From: a virus
Taxonomy: Duplodnaviria; Heunggongvirae; Uroviricota; Caudoviricetes
Direction: 5' to 3' (one strand)
DNA: 64,000 bases
Virus record (IMG/VR): IMGVR_UViG_3300032236_001858
Position 1 is the first letter of the stretch. The number at the start of each line of letters is the position of its first letter. A program made the position numbers and the translations under genes. Under the pieces are notes generated by a model, which had not been told where the DNA came from, ran no database searches, and worked only from the letters and a program-made list of their open reading frames with translations. Of this stretch, positions 58,140-61,387 are shown in pieces.

Positions 58140-58225
58140 GGTGTCGTTATTGTTAACGGAGAGTCGAAAGACGAGCATCTGGCTCTGTGAAAGCCAGGGT
58201 ACGGGTTCAAATCCCGTACGACACC
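58140..58225 (+). tRNA. tRNA-like, His anticodon GTG with a G-1:C73 pair, atypical (about 10 extra nt in the D region)
   Basis: Acceptor GTGTCGT/ACGACAC, anticodon stem TGGCT/AGCCA with loop CTGTGAA, T arm ACGGG-TTCAAAT-CCCGT. The D region runs 58150-58178. Confidence 0.35.
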
Positions 58226-58231
58226 CAAGAA

Positions 58232-58304
58232 GGAACCTAAGCTAATCAGGTGAAAGCACTGGACTGAAAATCCAGGGAGCCCGGATCGTTACCGGGAGGT
58301 TCCA
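58232..58304 (+). tRNA. tRNA-Phe(GAA) variant with a non-canonical T-loop (ATCGTTA), encoded CCA
   Basis: Acceptor GGAACCT/AGGTTCC, anticodon stem CTGGA/TCCAG with loop CTGAAAA, T arm CCCGG-ATCGTTA-CCGGG, then A-CCA. Confidence 0.45.
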
Positions 58305-58315
58305 CCAAAATAAAT

Positions 58316-58389
58316 GGTGTATGTAGCTCAATCGGTAGAGCGTCGGTTTGTGGAGCCGAAGGTAGCGGGATCGTAACCCGTCATTCACC
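58316..58389 (+). tRNA. tRNA-His(GTG) with G-1:C73, non-canonical T-loop (ATCGTAA)
   Basis: G-1 precedes acceptor GTGTATG/CATTCAC (one mismatch). D arm GCTC-AATCGGTA-GAGC. Anticodon stem TCGGT/GCCGA with loop TTGTGGA. Confidence 0.5.
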
Positions 58390-58394
58390 CAAAA

Positions 58395-58466
58395 GGAGAC
58401 TTAGCTGAGACGGTTTAGCGTTTGGTTGAAGCCCAAAAGAGGTCGGTTCGATTCCGGCAGTCTCCA
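58395..58466 (+). tRNA. tRNA-Phe(GAA), canonical
   Basis: Acceptor GGAGACT/AGTCTCC, D arm GCTG..TAGC, anticodon stem TTTGG/CCAAA with loop TTGAAGC, T arm GTCGG-TTCGATT-CCGGC. Confidence 0.6.
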
Positions 58467-58472
58467 CAACAT

Positions 58473-58543
58473 ACGTCATACAGACAAGGTGTCGGTCAGG
58501 TCTCCAAAACCTCGACGGTGGGGTTCGATTCCTCAATGGCGTG
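58473..58543 (+). tRNA. tRNA-like, Trp anticodon CCA, atypical short D arm (71 nt)
   Basis: Acceptor ACGTCAT/ATGGCGT (one G-U pair). Anticodon stem CAGGT/ACCTC (one mismatch) with loop CTCCAAA. T arm TGGGG-TTCGATT-CCTCA. Confidence 0.35.
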
Positions 58544-58549
58544 CTAAAT

Positions 58550-58621
58550 ACGGGTATGGTGTAATGGCTAACATTTTGGTCTCCAAAACCAAAGATCTTG
58601 ATTCGAATTCAGGTACCCGTG
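58550..58621 (+). tRNA. tRNA-Trp(CCA), canonical
   Basis: Acceptor ACGGGTA/TACCCGT, D arm GTGT-AATGGCTA-ACAT, anticodon stem TTGGT/ACCAA with loop CTCCAAA, T arm CTTGA-TTCGAAT-TCAGG. Confidence 0.6.
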
Positions 58622-58656
58622 CTAAAAGGTTCGTGTCTTTTTTTGATGTTTCGGAC

Positions 58657-58670
58657 TTAATATATAGAAT
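58657..58670 (+). promoter_or_regulatory. TTAATATATAGAAT promoter-like motif upstream of the HNH gene
   Basis: Recurrent motif about 15-30 nt upstream of the ATG at 58686. Confidence 0.35.
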
Positions 58671-58685
58671 AAATAAGTTTTATAT

Positions 58686-59228
58686 ATGAAAGAGGAAATA
58701 TTAAAGTTAAGAAGTGAAGGTAAGACTTTTAATGAAATAAAAGAAATACTAAAATGTTCAAAATCTACAATATCTTACCATTGTAGTGATGAACAAAAAG
58801 AAAAATCTAGAAATAGAACTAGAAAAAGAAGAGAGAATTTAATTCACTCTAAACTTGAAAGTTTTATCTATAGAAAAGAAAAAAATGTAAAAGAAGGAAT
58901 AAGAAAGTTTCAAAAAACTGACTCAAATTCTAAAGGAAGGGTTAATAGTAATATTAAAACAACATTTAATTGGGTTGATGTTTTGAATAAGTTTGGTGAA
59001 AATACATATTGTTATTTGTCTGGAGAGAAAATTAACCTATATGAAGATAACTACAACTTTGACCATATTATACCAGTTAGTAAAAATGGTAGTAATAGTT
59101 TAGAAAACTTAGGAATTCTACACGAAAAAGTAAATAGAATGAAATCTGACTTATCACCAGAAGAATTAATAGAATGGTGTAAAAAGATTTTAGAGTTTAA
59201 TAATTATAAAATAGAAAAATTAGATTAA
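58686..59228 (+). mobile_element. freestanding HNH homing endonuclease inside the tRNA island
   Basis: DHIIPVSKNGSNSLENLGILHEKVNRMK is an HNH motif, with an N-terminal helix-turn-helix-like region. Confidence 0.65.
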
Positions 59229-59261
59229 GAGTATGAAAACTAAATTGAAATATAAACGCTA

Positions 59262-59290
59262 GGCAACGATTCGAGTCACGGATCGTTGCC
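59262..59290 (+). other. perfect 9-bp stem hairpin (GGCAACGAT/ATCGTTGCC, 11-nt loop) with no U-tract
   Basis: Seen directly, 12 nt upstream of tRNA-Lys. It may be a processing or structural element. Confidence 0.4.
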
Positions 59291-59302
59291 CTCAACAACA
59301 AT

Positions 59303-59762: not shown

Positions 59763-59771
59763 CAAAAATAT

Positions 59772-59915
59772 GGAGAGAGTAGCTCAGTTGGTTAGAGCAC
59801 GTATTCATTCTCTGACAAGGATTCTCTGATTATGGTCAACATAATTAGTAGTGATGTTAAGAGATACTTCGGTCTGTTAAACCCGTGGTCGTAGGTTCGA
59901 GTCCTACCTCTCTCC
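59772..59915 (+). tRNA. interrupted tRNA gene: G-1 and C73 with an Asn-type anticodon GTT, about 68-nt insertion between the D arm and the anticodon arm
   Basis: G-1 precedes acceptor GAGAGAG/CTCTCTC. D arm GCTC-AGTTGGTTA-GAGC at 59782-59798. Anticodon arm TCGGT-CTGTTAA-ACCCG at 59869-59885. T arm GTAGG-TTCGAGT-CCTAC. Confidence 0.35.
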
Positions 59916-59943
59916 CAAATATTAGATTATTAAAAAAATAAAA

Positions 59944-60576
59944 ATGGAAATAAAATTAGAAAGTACTTACAAAGGAACAAGGATTCTTTTTAAGGACAGC
60001 GCTAAAAATAAAAGAAAGTTACTAAATAGCATGATTGATATTTTAGAATCATATGGTTATCAGGAAATAATGATACCTATTATTCAAAAACAAGAAACAT
60101 TTCAGTCAAAAGTTGGTGATGAAAACAGAAATATGATGTTTAACTTCAAAGACAGAGGTGATAGAGATTTGTGTTTATCTCCAGAGTACACGGCAATTGT
60201 TCAACAATTATCAAGTGATAAAATGAAATATGATAAAGATGTAAAAATGTTTTATATCGGTGAATGTTTCAGAGGAGAAAATACACAATCTGGAAGATGG
60301 AGACAATTTACACAATTTGGAGTTGAAGTTATAAATCCAAGTAAAGATTATACTGATGAAATGGTTGAAATTGCCAGTAAACTAATTGAGTTAGTTACAA
60401 AAAATTATGAAGTAAATCTGGAAACTACAAGAGGACTTGACTACTACAAAGGTGGAAAAGGATTTGAAATTGCTTGTCCCGAATTAGGATCATCTAAGCA
60501 AATTTGTGGAGGTGGTTCATATGATGGTGGTATTGGATTTGCTGTTGGTGTAGATAGATTACTATTATGTAAATAA
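59944..60576 (+). CDS. mini class-II histidyl-tRNA-synthetase-like catalytic core (HisZ-like, no anticodon-binding domain)
   Basis: ESYGYQEIMIPII ... LCLSPEYTAIVQQ, motif 2 FYIGECFRGENTQSGRWRQFTQFGVEV, and motif 3 ICGGGSYDGGIGFAVGVDRLLL align with HisRS. The motif-3 Arg is replaced by Ser. 210 aa. Confidence 0.65.
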   Translation: MEIKLESTYKGTRILFKDSAKNKRKLLNSMIDILESYGYQEIMIPIIQKQETFQSKVGDENRNMMFNFKDRGDRDLCLSPEYTAIVQQLSSDKMKYDKDVKMFYIGECFRGENTQSGRWRQFTQFGVEVINPSKDYTDEMVEIASKLIELVTKNYEVNLETTRGLDYYKGGKGFEIACPELGSSKQICGGGSYDGGIGFAVGVDRLLLCK

Positions 60577-60585
60577 AAATAAATT

Positions 60586-60713
60586 GGGGATGTAGCTCAG
60601 TGGTAGAGAAAACTATCTCTTTTGAAAATTTACCTCATAAGAGTGTTGATTGAGAGAGTTACTTCGTATATTTTGAAATTATAAGGTCGTGGGTTCGAAT
60701 CCCACCATCCCCA
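60586..60713 (+). tRNA. interrupted tRNA gene (about 57-nt insertion between D arm and anticodon arm), anticodon probably TGA
   Basis: Acceptor GGGGATG/CATCCCC. D arm GCTC-AGTGGTA-GAGA at 60595-60609. Anticodon arm TATAT-TTTGAAA-TTATA at 60667-60683. T arm GTGGG-TTCGAAT-CCCAC. Confidence 0.3.
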
Positions 60714-60891
60714 CAAAAAAGATTTGGTAAATCAATAAAAAAGATTTACTTTTGTAAAAACAAAGAAAAGAAAATTAATATATAATAAAGTTATGAAAAC
60801 AATTATGCTTACATCGAAGTCGTCAAGTAGTCGCTCGTCAAAACCGAGTGAGGTTCGATCGTATTCATAATATTCGTATAAAGATATTTTA

Positions 60892-60928
60892 TGAAACCCT
60901 CGAACTTAATGTTTGAGGGTTTTTTTGT
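60892..60928 (+). terminator. rho-independent terminator
   Basis: Hairpin AAACCCTCGAACTTAATGTTTGAGGGTTT followed by T7. Confidence 0.6.
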
Positions 60929-60937
60929 TTTATATAT

Positions 60938-61012
60938 GGTTCTATAGTTTAAATGGATAAAACACTCGGCTACGAACCGAGAGACGTGAAGGTTCGAATC
61001 CTTCTGGAACTA
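60938..61012 (+). tRNA. tRNA-Arg(ACG)
   Basis: Acceptor GGTTCTA/TGGAACT (two G-U pairs), D arm GTTT-AAATGGAT-AAAC, anticodon stem CTCGG/CCGAG with loop CTACGAA, T arm GAAGG-TTCGAAT-CCTTC. Confidence 0.55.
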
Positions 61013-61018
61013 CAAATT

Positions 61019-61109
61019 GGAGAAGTCAACCGAAATTGGTATCGGCCTAGTCTTGAAAACTAGTCATCGGCGATGAGTTGGTGTGTCGGTTCGAGTCCGA
61101 CCTTCTCCG
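61019..61109 (+). tRNA. tRNA-Ser(TGA), class II
   Basis: Acceptor GGAGAAG/CTTCTCC, anticodon stem CTAGT/ACTAG with loop CTTGAAA, a 21-nt variable arm with a CATC/GATG stem, T arm GTCGG-TTCGAGT-CCGAC. Confidence 0.6.
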
Positions 61110-61114
61110 CAACC

Positions 61115-61200
61115 GGAAGGAGTCCGAATGGACGAGGAACTTGTCTTGAAAACAAGCGGCTGTAAAAGGTTTGGGGGTTCGATTCCCTCTTCTTCCGCCA
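61115..61200 (+). tRNA. second class-II tRNA with Ser anticodon TGA, weaker D and variable arms, encoded CCA
   Basis: Acceptor GGAAGGA/TTCTTCC, anticodon stem CTTGT/ACAAG with loop CTTGAAA, T arm GGGGG-TTCGATT-CCCTC, then G-CCA. Confidence 0.45.
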
Positions 61201-61202
61201 AT

Positions 61203-61288
61203 GGAGAGTAAAGTAGCCAGGGTGCTACCACCGCCTGCTAAGCGAGTGGCCCATTAATTTGGGTGTGATTCGAGTTCACTGCTCTCCG
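61203..61288 (+). tRNA. tRNA-Ser(GCT)-like, class II, with a weak 3-bp anticodon stem
   Basis: Acceptor GGAGAGT/GCTCTCC, D arm GTAG-CCAGGGTG-CTAC, anticodon loop CTGCTAA, variable arm with a CCCA/TGGG stem, T arm TGTGA-TTCGAGT-TCACT. Confidence 0.4.
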
Positions 61289-61300
61289 CAAAAGATAACT

Positions 61301-61387
61301 GGAGAGTTGTCCGAGTGGTTTATGGAGCACGCTTGGAAAGCGTGTGTACTCGAAAGGGTACCGAAGGTTCGAATCCTTCACTCTCCG
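61301..61387 (+). tRNA. tRNA-Ser(GGA), class II
   Basis: Acceptor GGAGAGT/ACTCTCC, D arm TCC-GAGTGGTTTAT-GGA, anticodon stem CACGC/GCGTG with loop TTGGAAA, an 18-nt variable arm with a GTAC/GTAC stem, T arm GAAGG-TTCGAAT-CCTTC. Confidence 0.6.

Follow-up and report, generated by a model that had tools for sequence, protein, structure and literature searches.

The tRNA island between 58.1 and 61.4 kb of the window, the 64,000-nucleotide stretch of DNA analysed here, is probably best explained as a whole, judging from sequence comparison, by attenuator-controlled tRNA operons and tRNA body-plan variants of a Mahaphage-clade huge phage. The window is a relative of 634-642 kb phages of this clade, whose predicted hosts are Bacteroidetes. 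Both the tRNA order and the oddity of each copy are repeated in phage genomes at only 70-80% DNA identity, and this recurrence of gene order and per-copy peculiarities excludes a chance origin. The two-form tRNA pattern extends beyond the island, spanning the entire tRNA complement of Mahaphage-clade relatives.

ARAGORN and Rfam (at gathering score) agree on 12 plus-strand tRNAs in 58232-61388. Six tRNA-like genes below predictor thresholds complete a total of 18, matching the approximately 18 genes of the preliminary description. All six are conserved in at least one related phage, and five carry compensatory base changes; the exception is Ser-GCU, for which orthologues were identified purely from sequence matches. 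A seventh stretch resembling a tRNA, at 60793-60870, was rejected, as this stretch is a leader ORF. The genes of the island are as follows (bits, Rfam score; tRNA genes not marked sub-threshold are called by both programs).

58140-58225, + strand: tRNA-His(GUG), sub-threshold, G-1:C73, extra GNRA-capped hairpin (GUCGAAAGAC) within the D loop, 22.6 bits
58232-58304, + strand: tRNA-Phe(GAA), T loop AUCGUUA (A54:U58 swap), 52.7 bits
58316-58389, + strand: tRNA-His(GUG), predictor start at 58317, G-1:C73, T loop AUCGUAA (A54:U58 swap), 55.6 bits
58395-58466, + strand: tRNA-Phe(GAA), canonical, 60.4 bits
58472-58544, + strand: tRNA-Trp(CCA) variant, sub-threshold, 4-bp D stem, 3-nt D loop without GG, 7-bp bulged anticodon stem
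58550-58621, + strand: tRNA-Trp(CCA), canonical, 60.1 bits
58686-59228, + strand: HNH homing-endonuclease ORF (HNH_4, E = 5.7e-10)
59303-59375, + strand: tRNA-Lys(UUU), canonical, 71.1 bits
59383-59469, + strand: tRNA-Lys(UUU), variable arm of 19 nt, 60.5 bits
59478-59561, + strand: tRNA-Lys(UUU), variable arm of 15 nt, 65.0 bits
59566-59648, + strand: tRNA-Lys(CUU), variable arm of 15 nt, 53.2 bits
59657-59762, + strand: X0, tRNA-like, sub-threshold, class II type D arm, variable region of ~40 nt, non-conserved anticodon region
59772-59915, + strand: X1, tRNA-like, sub-threshold, ~70-nt insert between D arm and anticodon stem
59944-60576, + strand: truncated HisRS paralogue, 210 aa, catalytic core only
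60586-60713, + strand: X2, tRNA-like, sub-threshold, anticodon loop UUUGAAA (UGA), A73, ~55-nt insert
60938-61012, + strand: tRNA-Arg(ACG), canonical, 62.5 bits
61019-61109, + strand: tRNA-Ser(UGA), class II, 47.9 bits
61115-61197, + strand: tRNA-Ser(UGA), compact D arm, 37.6 bits
61203-61288, + strand: tRNA-Ser(GCU), sub-threshold, 8/4 (allo-tRNA) type with 8-bp acceptor stem and 4-bp T stem
61301-61387, + strand: tRNA-Ser(GGA), class II, canonical, 55.1 bits

The duplicates reported in the preliminary description were recovered: two His-GTG genes (one with an expanded D region, the other with the AUCGUAA T loop), two Phe-GAA genes (one canonical, one with the AUCGUUA T loop), two Trp-CCA genes (one with a short D arm), two Ser-TGA genes, four Lys genes and two interrupted genes. 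The D-loop hairpin of the atypical tRNA-His covaries across five genomes. The variant tRNA-Trp, which attains 27.3 bits against the tRNA-Sec model, is kept in three related genomes (L007, L012 and L002). The X0 acceptor stem carries a compensatory change relative to L006. X1 combines the D arm, anticodon GUU and T arm of tRNA-Asn with an anticodon stem that differs from tRNA-Asn and a His-type acceptor (G-1:C73); the X2 insert lies at the same position as that of X1, and the two share a motif. The AGT codons of leader 3 require the anticodon of the Ser(GCU) gene at 61203-61288, and orthologues of this gene in L001 and L002 attain the Rfam tRNA-Sec gathering score.

Five anticodons (His-GUG, Phe-GAA, Trp-CCA, Lys-UUU and Ser-UGA) are each represented by at least two body plans, with canonical and deviant copies sharing one operon. 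The earlier claim that almost every anticodon has two forms therefore stands for five of about ten and was overstated, CUU, ACG, GCU and GGA being single-copy. The deviant forms are real, but the scheme of one canonical and one non-canonical copy is too simple, since duplicated anticodons have two to four body plans and neither His copy is canonical. Deviations comprise a long variable arm in three Lys tRNAs, a D-loop hairpin, T loops with the A54:U58 swap, one tRNA-Ser of 8/4 type and inserts of 55-70 nt in two genes. The most striking is the long variable arm on three of the four Lys genes, which went unmentioned in the preliminary description, as did the clade-wide pattern and the putative leader-peptide attenuators organising the island into operons.

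The long-arm Lys tRNAs show compensatory changes at 21 of 23 base pairs (20 sequences), and T-loop positions 54 and 58 covary. From these changes and the covarying His D-loop hairpin, the odd copies are structural variants under selection rather than genes in decay, in line with the preliminary description. An ordinary codon-supplementing phage tRNA cluster, with duplicates as recent copies drifting to pseudogenes, is thus disfavoured and appears highly improbable. Such a cluster would accommodate the HNH ORF, since phages commonly have tRNA arrays that contain homing endonucleases, as well as the several odd members under predictor thresholds and a window of 29.7% G+C in which AAA, TTT and AAT are frequent codons. 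However, the peculiarities of the odd copies are kept at the above identity with compensatory changes, and codons read by tRNA-Arg(ACG) account for only ~0.5% of the codons in the window's genes, so the set is not a simple codon supplement, in agreement with the preliminary description. The HNH ORF itself is absent from the corresponding site in relatives, which indicates an insertion specific to the window's genome.

Upstream of the tRNA runs lie short leader ORFs, promoter-like elements and hairpins:

57905-57916, + strand: promoter-like element TAATTTTGTATA, matching TAnnTTTG
57969-58076, + strand: leader ORF 1, MRTNNTHKHFSKSNKWFSNQFGTESVLLSNKMLKV and stop codon
58096-58130, + strand: intrinsic terminator 1, hairpin GTCCGAACTT/AAGTTCGGAC, then T6
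59233-59262, + strand: Lys mini-leader ORF, MKTKLKYKR and stop codon, conserved in seven genomes
59262-59290, + strand: strong hairpin adjoining the mini-leader stop codon, without a U tract
60747-60758, + strand: promoter-like element TACTTTTGTAAA
60793-60870, + strand: leader ORF 3, MKTIMLTSKSSSSRSSKPSEVRSYS and stop codon
60893-60926, + strand: intrinsic terminator 2, hairpin CCCTCGAAC/GTTTGAGGG, then T7

TAnnTTTG, which we take to be the Bacteroidetes -7 type promoter motif, precedes 19 of 33 leaders at a distance of 25-92 nt, against a window background of 0.08 per 100 nt. An independent scan found exactly two strong plus-strand terminators in 57.7-61.6 kb, each directly 5' of a tRNA run. 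Since the hairpin after the Lys mini-leader lacks a U tract, the classical attenuation model is inapplicable to that unit. Under the ordinary-cluster explanation, the short ORFs and hairpins would be incidental, the hairpins terminating preceding genes. Four unrelated cultured phages (38 tRNAs) speak against it as controls, since they lack the island's architecture: no terminator directly precedes a tRNA array, the sole terminator within 130 nt of one follows a coding gene, and all but a few anticodons have a single form.

Leader residues correspond to downstream tRNA identities across 34 leader/terminator units at 13 loci, a count in which orthologous leaders are related sequences and hence not independent events. 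Examples are MRTNNTHKHFSKSNKWF 5' of His/Phe/Trp/Lys, MKTKLKYKR 5' of Lys and MKTIMLTSKSSSSRSS 5' of Arg/Ser, and the THKHFSKS-KWF core is retained in leader 1 orthologues. In all three sets of eight operons, no other of the 40,320 permutations scores as well as the true leader/tRNA pairing, which again opposes an ordinary cluster. Where operons are re-sorted in distant relatives, leaders are altered in step, as in MKNWHHISNSNSNRINSS 5' of His, Asn, Ile, Leu, Ser and Arg. The match holds at codon level: across the genes of the window ~80% of Arg codons are AGA, yet Ser/Arg leaders use only CGN (12/12) ahead of Arg anticodons ACG, UCG or GCG, and leaders ahead of Arg-UCU or Arg-CCU operons use AGA (3/3). 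Some cognate codons, Phe17 and Phe21 of leader 1, sit where stalling would not help.

An antiterminator segment of 7-10 bp, complementary to the 5' arm of the terminator, mostly falls within the leader ORF's final 2-36 nt, with three segments extending up to 8 nt beyond the stop codon. Its duplex energy is below that of shuffled controls (z < 0) in 33 of 34 units. As the segment sequence differs between operon families, this complementarity constitutes covariation, a repetition that an ordinary cluster would not predict; in the Ser/Arg alignment, pairing in the helix reaches 96.8% and includes two compensatory pairs. Leader 1 contains region 1 at ~57993-58010 and region 2 at 58026-58038 (CAGTTCGGTACTG), whose duplex with the terminator 5' arm reaches -12.8 kcal/mol (z = -3.7); region 2 of leader 3 lies at 60851-60863 (AGGTTCGATCGTA). 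Folding with a ribosome mask gave a probability of terminator-arm sequestration in leader 1 of 0.33 without a ribosome; this climbed to 0.80-0.89 when codons 4-15 (NNTHKHFSKSNK) occupied the A site and fell back to 0.33 from codon 17 onward. For leader 3 the probability was 0.76-0.77 as long as the stall lay no further than codon 15, and 0.38-0.53 close to the stop codon. Its antiterminator is favoured even without a ribosome, so basal read-through may be high.

Given the demonstrated anatomy, conservation, covariation and codon/anticodon match, we infer that stalling leads to read-through. Each operon would comprise a TAnnTTTG promoter-like element, a short leader ORF bearing the codons decoded by the downstream tRNAs, an intrinsic terminator 10-25 nt 5' of the first tRNA, and the tRNAs, with region 2, in the 3' part of the leader ORF, able to pair with region 3, the terminator 5' arm. 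When charged cognate tRNAs are abundant, the ribosome would reach the leader end and mask region 2, so that the terminator forms and no tRNAs are made; with no stalled ribosome, pairing between regions 1 and 2 would likewise let the terminator form. Slow decoding of leader codons would stall the ribosome early, leaving region 2 to sequester the terminator arm and RNA polymerase to read through into the tRNA genes and, in operon 1, into the truncated HisRS gene. The new tRNAs would relieve the stall, closing a homeostatic loop. The trp and his operons use leader-peptide attenuation of this style, here apparently applied to tRNA genes; our literature search found no earlier report of leader-peptide attenuation controlling tRNA genes.

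The HisRS gene, 86% identical in LR745206 and LR756502, raises the alternative that deviant tRNAs are partners of phage synthetases in orthogonal or semi-orthogonal charging, some of them recoding. X1, with its His acceptor identity and Asn anticodon, would then insert His at AAU and AAC, and long-arm Lys tRNAs, whose A73 also serves as discriminator for Leu and Tyr, could be LeuRS-charged like nev-tRNAs. The HisRS core next to X1 in the operon lacks an anticodon-binding domain, and relatives carry at the same place a putative mini-TrpRS-like ORF (HIGH and KMSKS motifs, recognised by eye). Phages of this kind carry genes for as many as 15 synthetases, suggested to aminoacylate the phages' own variant tRNAs (PMC7162821), and HisRS histidylates G-1 tRNAs with a Thr anticodon (PMC5389517). 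We nevertheless consider this unlikely. The discriminator tracks the anticodon's amino acid (Lys A73, 21/21; His C73 with G-1; Asn G, Trp G, Thr U, Cys U), also in extra-arm copies for His, Asn, Trp, Thr and Cys, which argues for cognate charging. Moreover, the closest relative has X1 and X2 without a HisRS gene between them, many amino acids have variants without an adjacent synthetase, and Lys leaders require Lys-codon decoding, though a decoder of any kind would lift the stall.

The deviant members, especially X0, X1, X2 and the variant His and Trp genes, might instead be non-decoding tRNA-like RNAs serving as tRNA nuclease or toxin decoys, regulators, or processing signals in a polycistronic precursor. 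X0 without a conserved anticodon arm and the shared motif of the X1 and X2 inserts fit such roles, and these three genes may have no decoding function; examples are known of irregular polycistronic tRNAs being charged yet unused in translation (PMC5389517). For the deviant class as a whole, this is a doubtful proposition. In X1, X2, the 58140 His, the 58472 Trp and the Lys variants, conservation of the anticodon loops and stems is accompanied by compensatory changes, the AGT codons of Ser/Arg leaders are servable only by the 8/4 Ser-GCU gene, and hairpin-tagged tRNAs can be translationally active (PMC7590224).

The preferred reading is that the same-anticodon variants are charged, used and cognate decoders. 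Each operon would supply several isoacceptors that share anticodon loop and acceptor identity but differ in body (an extra GNRA-capped arm in the variable region or D loop, the A54:U58-swapped T loop or the 8/4 acceptor/T arrangement), diversified so that at least one escapes body-recognising enzymes, for which host tRNA-cutting defences are candidates. To our knowledge, tRNA-Lys is the commonest target among such defences, and extra-arm copies are most numerous for Lys (21/34). PrrC, PARIS and bacterial Schlafen target tRNA-Lys (PMC10264068, PMC13056530). Two observations count against this reading: nuclease-evading phage tRNAs described previously differ in the anticodon loop (PMC10264068), a part that is standard in the island's tRNAs, which vary in the body instead, and canonical and deviant copies share an operon. 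Our best guess is that the several bodies per anticodon are spare parts evading tRNA-directed nucleases. The phage seemingly activates these spare tRNA genes only upon ribosome stalling at the codons those tRNAs read.

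The tRNA island between 58.1 and 61.4 kb is confirmed. Twelve + strand tRNAs at 58232–61388 receive identical calls from ARAGORN and from Rfam at gathering score, each run independently. Six further tRNA-like genes, missed by these predictors, emerge from permissive Rfam searches, single-sequence folds and a simple acceptor/T-arm detector; this lenient detector gives many false positives outside clusters in A+T-rich DNA and was used only inside clusters or over ARAGORN calls. The total of 18 agrees with the roughly 18 genes counted in the preliminary description.

tRNA and tRNA-like genes of the island
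58232–61388, + strand: twelve called tRNAs (Phe-GAA twice, His-GUG, Trp-CCA, Lys-UUU three times, Lys-CUU, Arg-ACG, Ser-UGA twice, Ser-GGA)
58140–58225: His-GUG variant, below predictor calls
58472–58544: Trp-CCA variant, below predictor calls
59657–59762: X0, tRNA-like gene, below predictor calls
59772–59915: X1, tRNA-like gene, below predictor calls
60586–60713: X2, tRNA-like gene, below predictor calls
61203–61288: Ser-GCU, below predictor calls

Each specific feature listed in the preliminary description is present in the island, and the same-anticodon copies stand in the ARAGORN run that it had suggested as a check (Phe-GAA twice, Ser-UGA twice and Lys-UUU three times). Its claim that almost every anticodon occurs in two forms holds for GUG, GAA, CCA, UUU and UGA but is overstated, with CUU, ACG, GCU and GGA present singly; its reading of the odd genes as structural variants gains partial support in that they are conserved and structured. 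An alternative genetic code or suppressor tRNAs were rejected: long ORFs are intact in code 11, and CUA, UCA and UUA anticodons are absent from the window. Four unrelated cultured phages with 38 tRNAs, examined as a control, have mostly one form per anticodon.

Within the phage collection, substantial matches to the island come only from LR745206 (634,780 bp) and LR756502 (642,428 bp), at 72–80% identity over parts of it; further relatives, closer and more distant, were found in IMG/VR. The order His, Phe, His, Phe, (Trp variant), Trp, Lys, three long-arm Lys, Arg and several Ser is repeated in relatives. Mahaphage-clade phages have Bacteroidetes as predicted hosts, and their genomes encode as many as 67 tRNAs and 15 synthetases (PMC7162821). 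The window, with a G+C content of 29.7%, also encodes SmpB, sigma-70-like, S1-domain and YqeY-like proteins. The sigma-70 family protein (48939–49727), which has regions 2 and 4, may serve the phage to redirect transcription, and the genes of the YqeY-like protein, kin of the GatB C-terminal domain (55788–56195), and the S1-domain protein (35271–36368) are translation-related and lie near the island.

Upstream of the tRNA genes, on the same strand, lie short leader ORFs with a start and a stop codon. This arrangement recurs in 34 orthologous or analogous units, and the same leader/tRNA architecture is found at all tRNA operons reachable in relatives.

Leader ORFs and the genes that follow them
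57969–58076, leader 1: MRTNNTHKHFSKSNKWFSNQFGTESVLLSNKMLKV; then operon 1 (His, Phe, His, Phe, Trp, Trp, Lys x4, X0, X1, mini-HisRS, X2)
59233–59262, third, tiny ORF: MKTKLKYKR; directly 5' of the Lys genes
60793–60870, leader 3: MKTIMLTSKSSSSRSSKPSEVRSYS; then operon 3 (Arg, Ser x4)
Relatives, leader MTTTQQIQQQQINQTD: 5' of Gln x3
Relatives, leader MNTITNIASYESYYEEGN...: 5' of Glu, Tyr
Relatives, leader MKNLNNISIAVIGNGAGAI...: 5' of Ile, Gly, Ala
Relatives, leader MTTMNLNMTMNLTLNVVNITLCNIR...: 5' of Asn, Leu, Val, Thr, Ile, Met, Arg
Relatives, leader ...APVNPQPQDQDP...: 5' of Pro, Asp

The leaders are enriched in codons cognate to the regulated tRNAs. Where distant genomes sort their tRNAs otherwise, the leaders track the change, as with MKNLTNILFVMTLTVLFQFTQ... 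before Gln, Phe, Met, Thr, Val and Leu, and when all 40,320 permutations are scored, the true leader/operon pairing ranks first, without ties, in each of three eight-operon sets. The match extends to individual codons. Arg codons in Ser/Arg leaders are exclusively CGN (12/12), with a downstream anticodon of ACG, UCG or GCG; where an operon includes Arg-UCU or Arg-CCU, its leader has AGA (3/3), which accounts for ~80% of all Arg codons among the window's genes. AGT codons in Ser/Arg leaders are readable only by the Ser-GCU gene, providing indirect evidence that this gene decodes. A candidate tRNA-like gene at 60793–60870, suggested by GGTTCGA and flanking complementarity, was rejected, the segment being the leader ORF of the Ser/Arg operon, whose 1:2 and 2:3 pairings account for the complementarity.

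An independent scan reveals exactly two strong intrinsic terminators on the + strand between 57.7 and 61.6 kb, at 58096–58128 and 60893–60923 (annotated as 58096–58130 and 60893–60926), separated from the leader ORF end by 24–27 nt (19–51 nt in relatives). Each tRNA run starts 10–25 nt 3' of such a terminator. The scan detects no further terminator between 58128 and 60893, so operon 1 probably includes the HNH gene and the truncated HisRS. In the four control phages, no terminator directly precedes a tRNA array, and the only terminator within 130 nt of a tRNA comes after a coding gene. The HNH endonuclease ORF (58686–59228), inside the tRNA operon here and absent there in relatives, and a LAGLIDADG-like ORF 5 kb upstream (52426–53298) look like mobile homing-endonuclease genes. 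At the other end, a 100-aa ORF with no Pfam match (61403–61705) starts 16 nt past the last tRNA. No terminator separates the two, and the ORF may share the operon 3 transcript; homologues with 40–75% identity lie ~0.03–0.7 kb after the island's last called tRNA in LR745206, LR756502 and two further related loci (L006 and L007), the match in a fifth locus (L009) being the same LR756502 copy.

The terminators compete with a second pairing. Region 2, a leader ORF segment, is complementary to the terminator 5' arm (region 3) over 7–10 bp, more strongly than in shuffled controls in 33/34 units (median z −2.2), and this antiterminator segment falls mostly in the last 2–36 nt of the leader ORF. The paired segments are CAGTTCGGTAC/GTCCGAAC, TATCCGGTTT/AAGCCGGAT and AAACTAGAGGT/ACCTCTAGTT in different operon families; since these sequences differ completely between families, the pairing covaries. 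Within the Ser/Arg family alignment, pairing of the antiterminator helix reaches 96.8% and includes two compensatory pairs. Alignment shifts spoil the pair counts of the inner antiterminator helix and of the terminator, and a per-sequence duplex analysis was used instead. The window's Ser/Arg leader folds into three alternative pairings: a 1:2 pairing of ACATCGAA with TTCGAT plus CGCTCG with CGAGTG, a 2:3 antiterminator of GGTTCGA with TCGAACT, and the 3:4 terminator.

The effect of a ribosome was modeled by folding the nascent transcript with a 30-nt ribosome mask. For leader 1, the terminator arm is sequestered with a probability of 0.33 with no ribosome, 0.80–0.89 with the A site on codons 4–15 (N N T H K H F S K S N K), and again 0.33 from codon 17; stalling at Phe17 and Phe21 would not help. 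For leader 3, sequestration is 0.76–0.77 for stalls up to codon 15 and 0.38–0.53 near the stop codon. A TAnnTTTG motif, which we take to be the Bacteroidetes −7 promoter motif, lies 25–92 nt 5' of 19/33 leaders (background 0.08 per 100 nt in the window). Leaders lacking it come after other tRNAs and look like internal checkpoints. Separate from this motif, an A/T motif, TTAATATATAA(G/A)AAATA, sits directly 5' of many leader ATGs (57948–57968, 60771–60792 and at many loci) and may act either in translation initiation or as a second promoter.

Beyond what is observed, namely the anatomy and how it is conserved, the covariation and the match between codons and anticodons, leader-peptide attenuation very probably controls the tRNA operons, by analogy with characterized attenuators. 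As inferred from the trp, his and pheST systems, a ribosome stalled at hungry codons would free region 2, the antiterminator would form, the tRNA genes would be transcribed, and the newly made tRNAs would relieve the stall. The island shares with the trp, his, pheA, thr, leu, ilv and pheST attenuators a short ORF rich in regulatory codons, the 1:2 pairing, the 2:3 antiterminator, the 3:4 intrinsic terminator and the read-through predicted from stalling at hungry codons; as in pheST, a synthetase-like gene (mini-HisRS) is among the regulated genes. Unlike those systems, it is phage-borne, its leaders and those of the clade are multi-amino-acid, with up to seven identities tracking operon content, and the regulated genes are not for amino-acid biosynthesis but are the tRNAs that read the regulatory codons. 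The signal would thus be decoding capacity, and the loop would close directly on the tRNA pool. T-box riboswitches also combine a cis leader with competing terminator and antiterminator, report the state of a specific tRNA and control translation-supply genes, but they bind uncharged tRNA directly via a specifier codon and have no ORF, whereas the sensor here would be the translating ribosome; no T-box match was found in Rfam.

The Lys mini-leader departs from this scheme. Directly after MKTKLKYKR lies a hairpin (59262–59290) of 9–11 bp with no U tract and no competing partner, so that leaders 1 and 3 have intrinsic terminators and this one island unit, unlike trp/his-type attenuators, has none with a U tract. 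The arrangement of mini-leader and hairpin is kept in seven genomes with unrelated hairpin sequences, a conservation which argues that the hairpin matters. The classical attenuation model does not explain it.

A long variable arm is a class II feature, in bacteria normally confined to Leu, Ser and Tyr. Three of the four island Lys genes are long-armed, with V regions of 19, 15 and 15 nt at 59383, 59478 and 59566. They are class II by their variable region (≥10 nt, forming a stem-loop) and not by bacterial identity, having UUU or CUU anticodons and an invariant A73. An alignment of 20 long-arm Lys tRNAs from ten loci supports a cloverleaf plus variable-arm helix with compensatory changes in 21/23 pairs, those of the V helix included, a 3-bp D stem, and an invariant anticodon loop, CU[U/C]UUAA, and A73.

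This dimorphism is genome-wide in the clade, which has extra-arm Lys (21), Glu, Gln, His, Trp, Asn, Thr and Cys tRNAs, and in which 8/16 Leu tRNAs have lost the long arm. A closed GNRA tetraloop caps 23/34 extra arms. As in the short forms, the discriminators of the extra-arm tRNAs are those of the anticodon's amino acid (Lys A73 in 21/21, His C73 with G-1, Asn G73, Trp G73, Thr U73 and Cys U73), which argues for cognate charging and not for charging with Ser or Leu. The V-arm, D-loop and T-loop variants are predicted to decode cognately, a reading we consider reasonably likely. The cultured, T4-like Enterobacter phage EnC07 (Karamvirus, PQ096442.1; 9391–9472 of locus L031) also has an annotated tRNA-Cys(GCA), whose variable arm is 13 nt long and which carries U73, so extra-arm tRNAs are not restricted to uncultured giants.

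Class II-like tRNAs with other anticodons have their closest known parallels in nev-tRNAs of nematodes (PMC3333845) and in bacterial or phage allo-tRNAs with 8/4 or 9/3 arrangements (PMC5389517), which also join a long V arm to class I anticodons. Those have Leu or Ser identity and mistranslate or are inactive, whereas the acceptor identity of the island and clade variants appears to follow the anticodon. The extra arm here also differs in that it forms a short hairpin, which usually has a GNRA cap and leaves ~4 nt unpaired on the 3' side, and, unlike allo-tRNAs, the variants are 7/5, the Ser-GCU gene excepted.

Ser-GCU (61203–61288) folds with an 8-bp acceptor (GGAGAGUA/UGCUCUCC), a 4-bp T stem (GUGA/UCAC), a long, 5-bp D stem, a long V arm and G73. 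It is thereby a predicted (8/4) allo-type tRNA-Ser by the description of Mukai 2017, in which the long D stem has a small loop and position 73 is G or U, and its orthologues reach the Rfam tRNA-Sec gathering score at 47–48 bits. The (8/4) tRNA-Ser type was previously reported from phages (PMC5389517), and the island gene shares with it the 8/4 arrangement, long D stem and long V arm.

The His variant is a tRNA-His (G-1:C73) with a small D-loop hairpin 3' of GG, whose sequence varies and whose pairing is kept in five genomes (e.g., GUC-GAAA-GAC and GUUGA-GAAA-UCAAC). The Trp variant, with a 4-bp D stem, 3-nt loop and 7-bp bulged anticodon stem, is kept in three other genomes; a long-arm Trp-CCA takes its place in the closest relative. 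The T loops AUCGUUA and AUCGUAA swap the usual U54:A58 for A54:U58. Among 224 distinct clade tRNAs, 194 are U54/A58, 23 A54/U58 and 7 A54/A58, with no U54 paired to a non-A58; a strict swap was rejected, 7/30 A54 tRNAs having A58, and the covariation is strong, not absolute.

X0, X1 and X2 do not fit the attenuator account. X0 keeps acceptor, D and T arms and has no conserved anticodon arm. X1 and X2 have complete acceptor, D, anticodon and T arms with an extra 55–70 nt domain between D arm and anticodon stem, and their inserts have a 3' motif in common. Known tRNA introns are marked by a BHB motif or by a group I core of at least ~200 nt, and position 37/38 is their usual site. The size and position of the inserts speak against either type, and neither an Rfam intron match nor a BHB motif in the folds was found for them. 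A mini-tmRNA had been suggested for X2 by the SmpB gene and a 31-bit Rfam score, which falls short of the gathering score of 47; X2 also has G3:C70 and a full D arm. tmRNA hallmarks are an acceptor G3:U70 (Ala identity) and a tag reading frame, and neither ARAGORN nor Rfam at gathering score finds a tmRNA in the 64-kb window. By their sequences, then, the three are neither tmRNAs nor group I introns, with inserts off the usual intron site. The SmpB gene lies at 51960–52406 (Pfam E = 4e-52), with no tmRNA detected in the 64-kb window; a partner tmRNA may lie elsewhere in the genome. In LR745206, tRNA-like genes of 122–124 nt with large internal inserts (47525–47648 and 26171–26292 of locus L005) occur in other tRNA operons, so genes of the X1/X2 kind are not unique to the island.

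X1 combines the D arm, GUU anticodon and T arm of the clade's tRNA-Asn and an anticodon stem of its own with a His-type acceptor (G-1:C73). It adjoins mini-HisRS (59944–60576), a 210-aa HisRS paralogue reduced to the catalytic core, with class II core motifs (Pfam E = 2.7e-26), which lies inside operon 1, whose leader carries His codons. Mini-HisRS aligns to HisRS residues 6–140 and 252–315 without the insertion and anticodon-binding domains, reads GGGSYD in the HisB motif versus GGGRYD in HisRS, and shows 86% identity in LR745206 and LR756502. G-1 tRNAs bearing a Thr anticodon are histidylated (PMC5389517). Like these and tRNA-ProX, X1 mixes identity elements, here those of His with the Asn anticodon, and like the mistranslation pair tRNA-ProX/ProRSx it stands beside a synthetase paralogue predicted not to read the anticodon; unlike that pair, it has a 70-nt extra domain, and its HisRS adjacency is not conserved. 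A tight link between X1 and mini-HisRS was rejected, as X1 and X2 occur in the closest relative without a HisRS gene separating them. At the mini-HisRS position in LR756502 (6374–7090 of locus L002), an ORF recognized by eye resembles a short TrpRS, with HIGN for HIGH and KMSKS.

The several body plans per anticodon could be cognately charged spares, diversified against enzymes that recognize tRNA bodies. Phage isoacceptors, notably Lys, that substitute for or outlast tRNAs cut by the host (T5 and T4 versus PARIS, retron Ec78, PrrC and Schlafen) would share the proposed purpose of maintaining translation when tRNAs are attacked, and we know of no demand-sensing regulation described for such replacement tRNAs. 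Circumstantial support for spares comes from anticodon loops and acceptor identity that appear to be kept as the V, D and T regions vary, and from Lys, which far exceeds the other amino acids in number of variants and whose tRNA is attacked by PrrC, PARIS and a bacterial Schlafen (PMC10264068, PMC13056530). Against it, described nuclease-escape phage tRNAs alter the anticodon loop and not the body (PMC10264068), whereas the variants here have standard anticodon loops and differing bodies. We hold an anti-nuclease purpose of the body plans only as a tentative suggestion.

Equally speculative is a joint reading, in which the attenuator would act as a codon-by-codon sensor of decoding capacity, and tRNA depletion by host defence or by the phage's shut-off of its host would switch on a replacement operon supplying several architectures, at least one of them nuclease-proof: extra-arm (class II-like) Lys, Glu, Gln, Asn, His, Trp, Thr and Cys tRNAs and short-arm Leu tRNAs. 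We found neither long-arm Lys tRNAs nor tRNA operons under leader-peptide control described in the full-text literature, with most subscription journals outside this coverage, and the parts of a 2020 review of non-canonical tRNAs reached through phage and extra-arm terms do not mention phages (PMC7609411).

The extra-arm tRNAs appear to widen the known range of tRNA architecture with cognate acceptor identity retained (Lys A73 in 21/21). They would be natural substrates for probing which tRNA bodies anticodon nucleases and synthetases accept, and could serve as scaffolds for orthogonal translation, and the EnC07 tRNA-Cys, which joins a class I amino acid to an extra arm in a culturable system, makes this part bench-testable. 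The attenuation mechanism itself is known; its target, phage tRNA genes reading the regulatory codons, is new to our knowledge. The island thus appears to contain an undescribed regulation of tRNA supply, which makes it more interesting than the preliminary description proposed. If the predicted read-through is true, we know of no earlier case of ribosome-mediated attenuation of tRNA genes, and the virus would monitor translation codon by codon and repair the tRNA pool on demand. The leaders would then be a readable record of the tRNAs that the phage expects to lose, and a direct handle on the long-standing question of the purpose of phage tRNAs.
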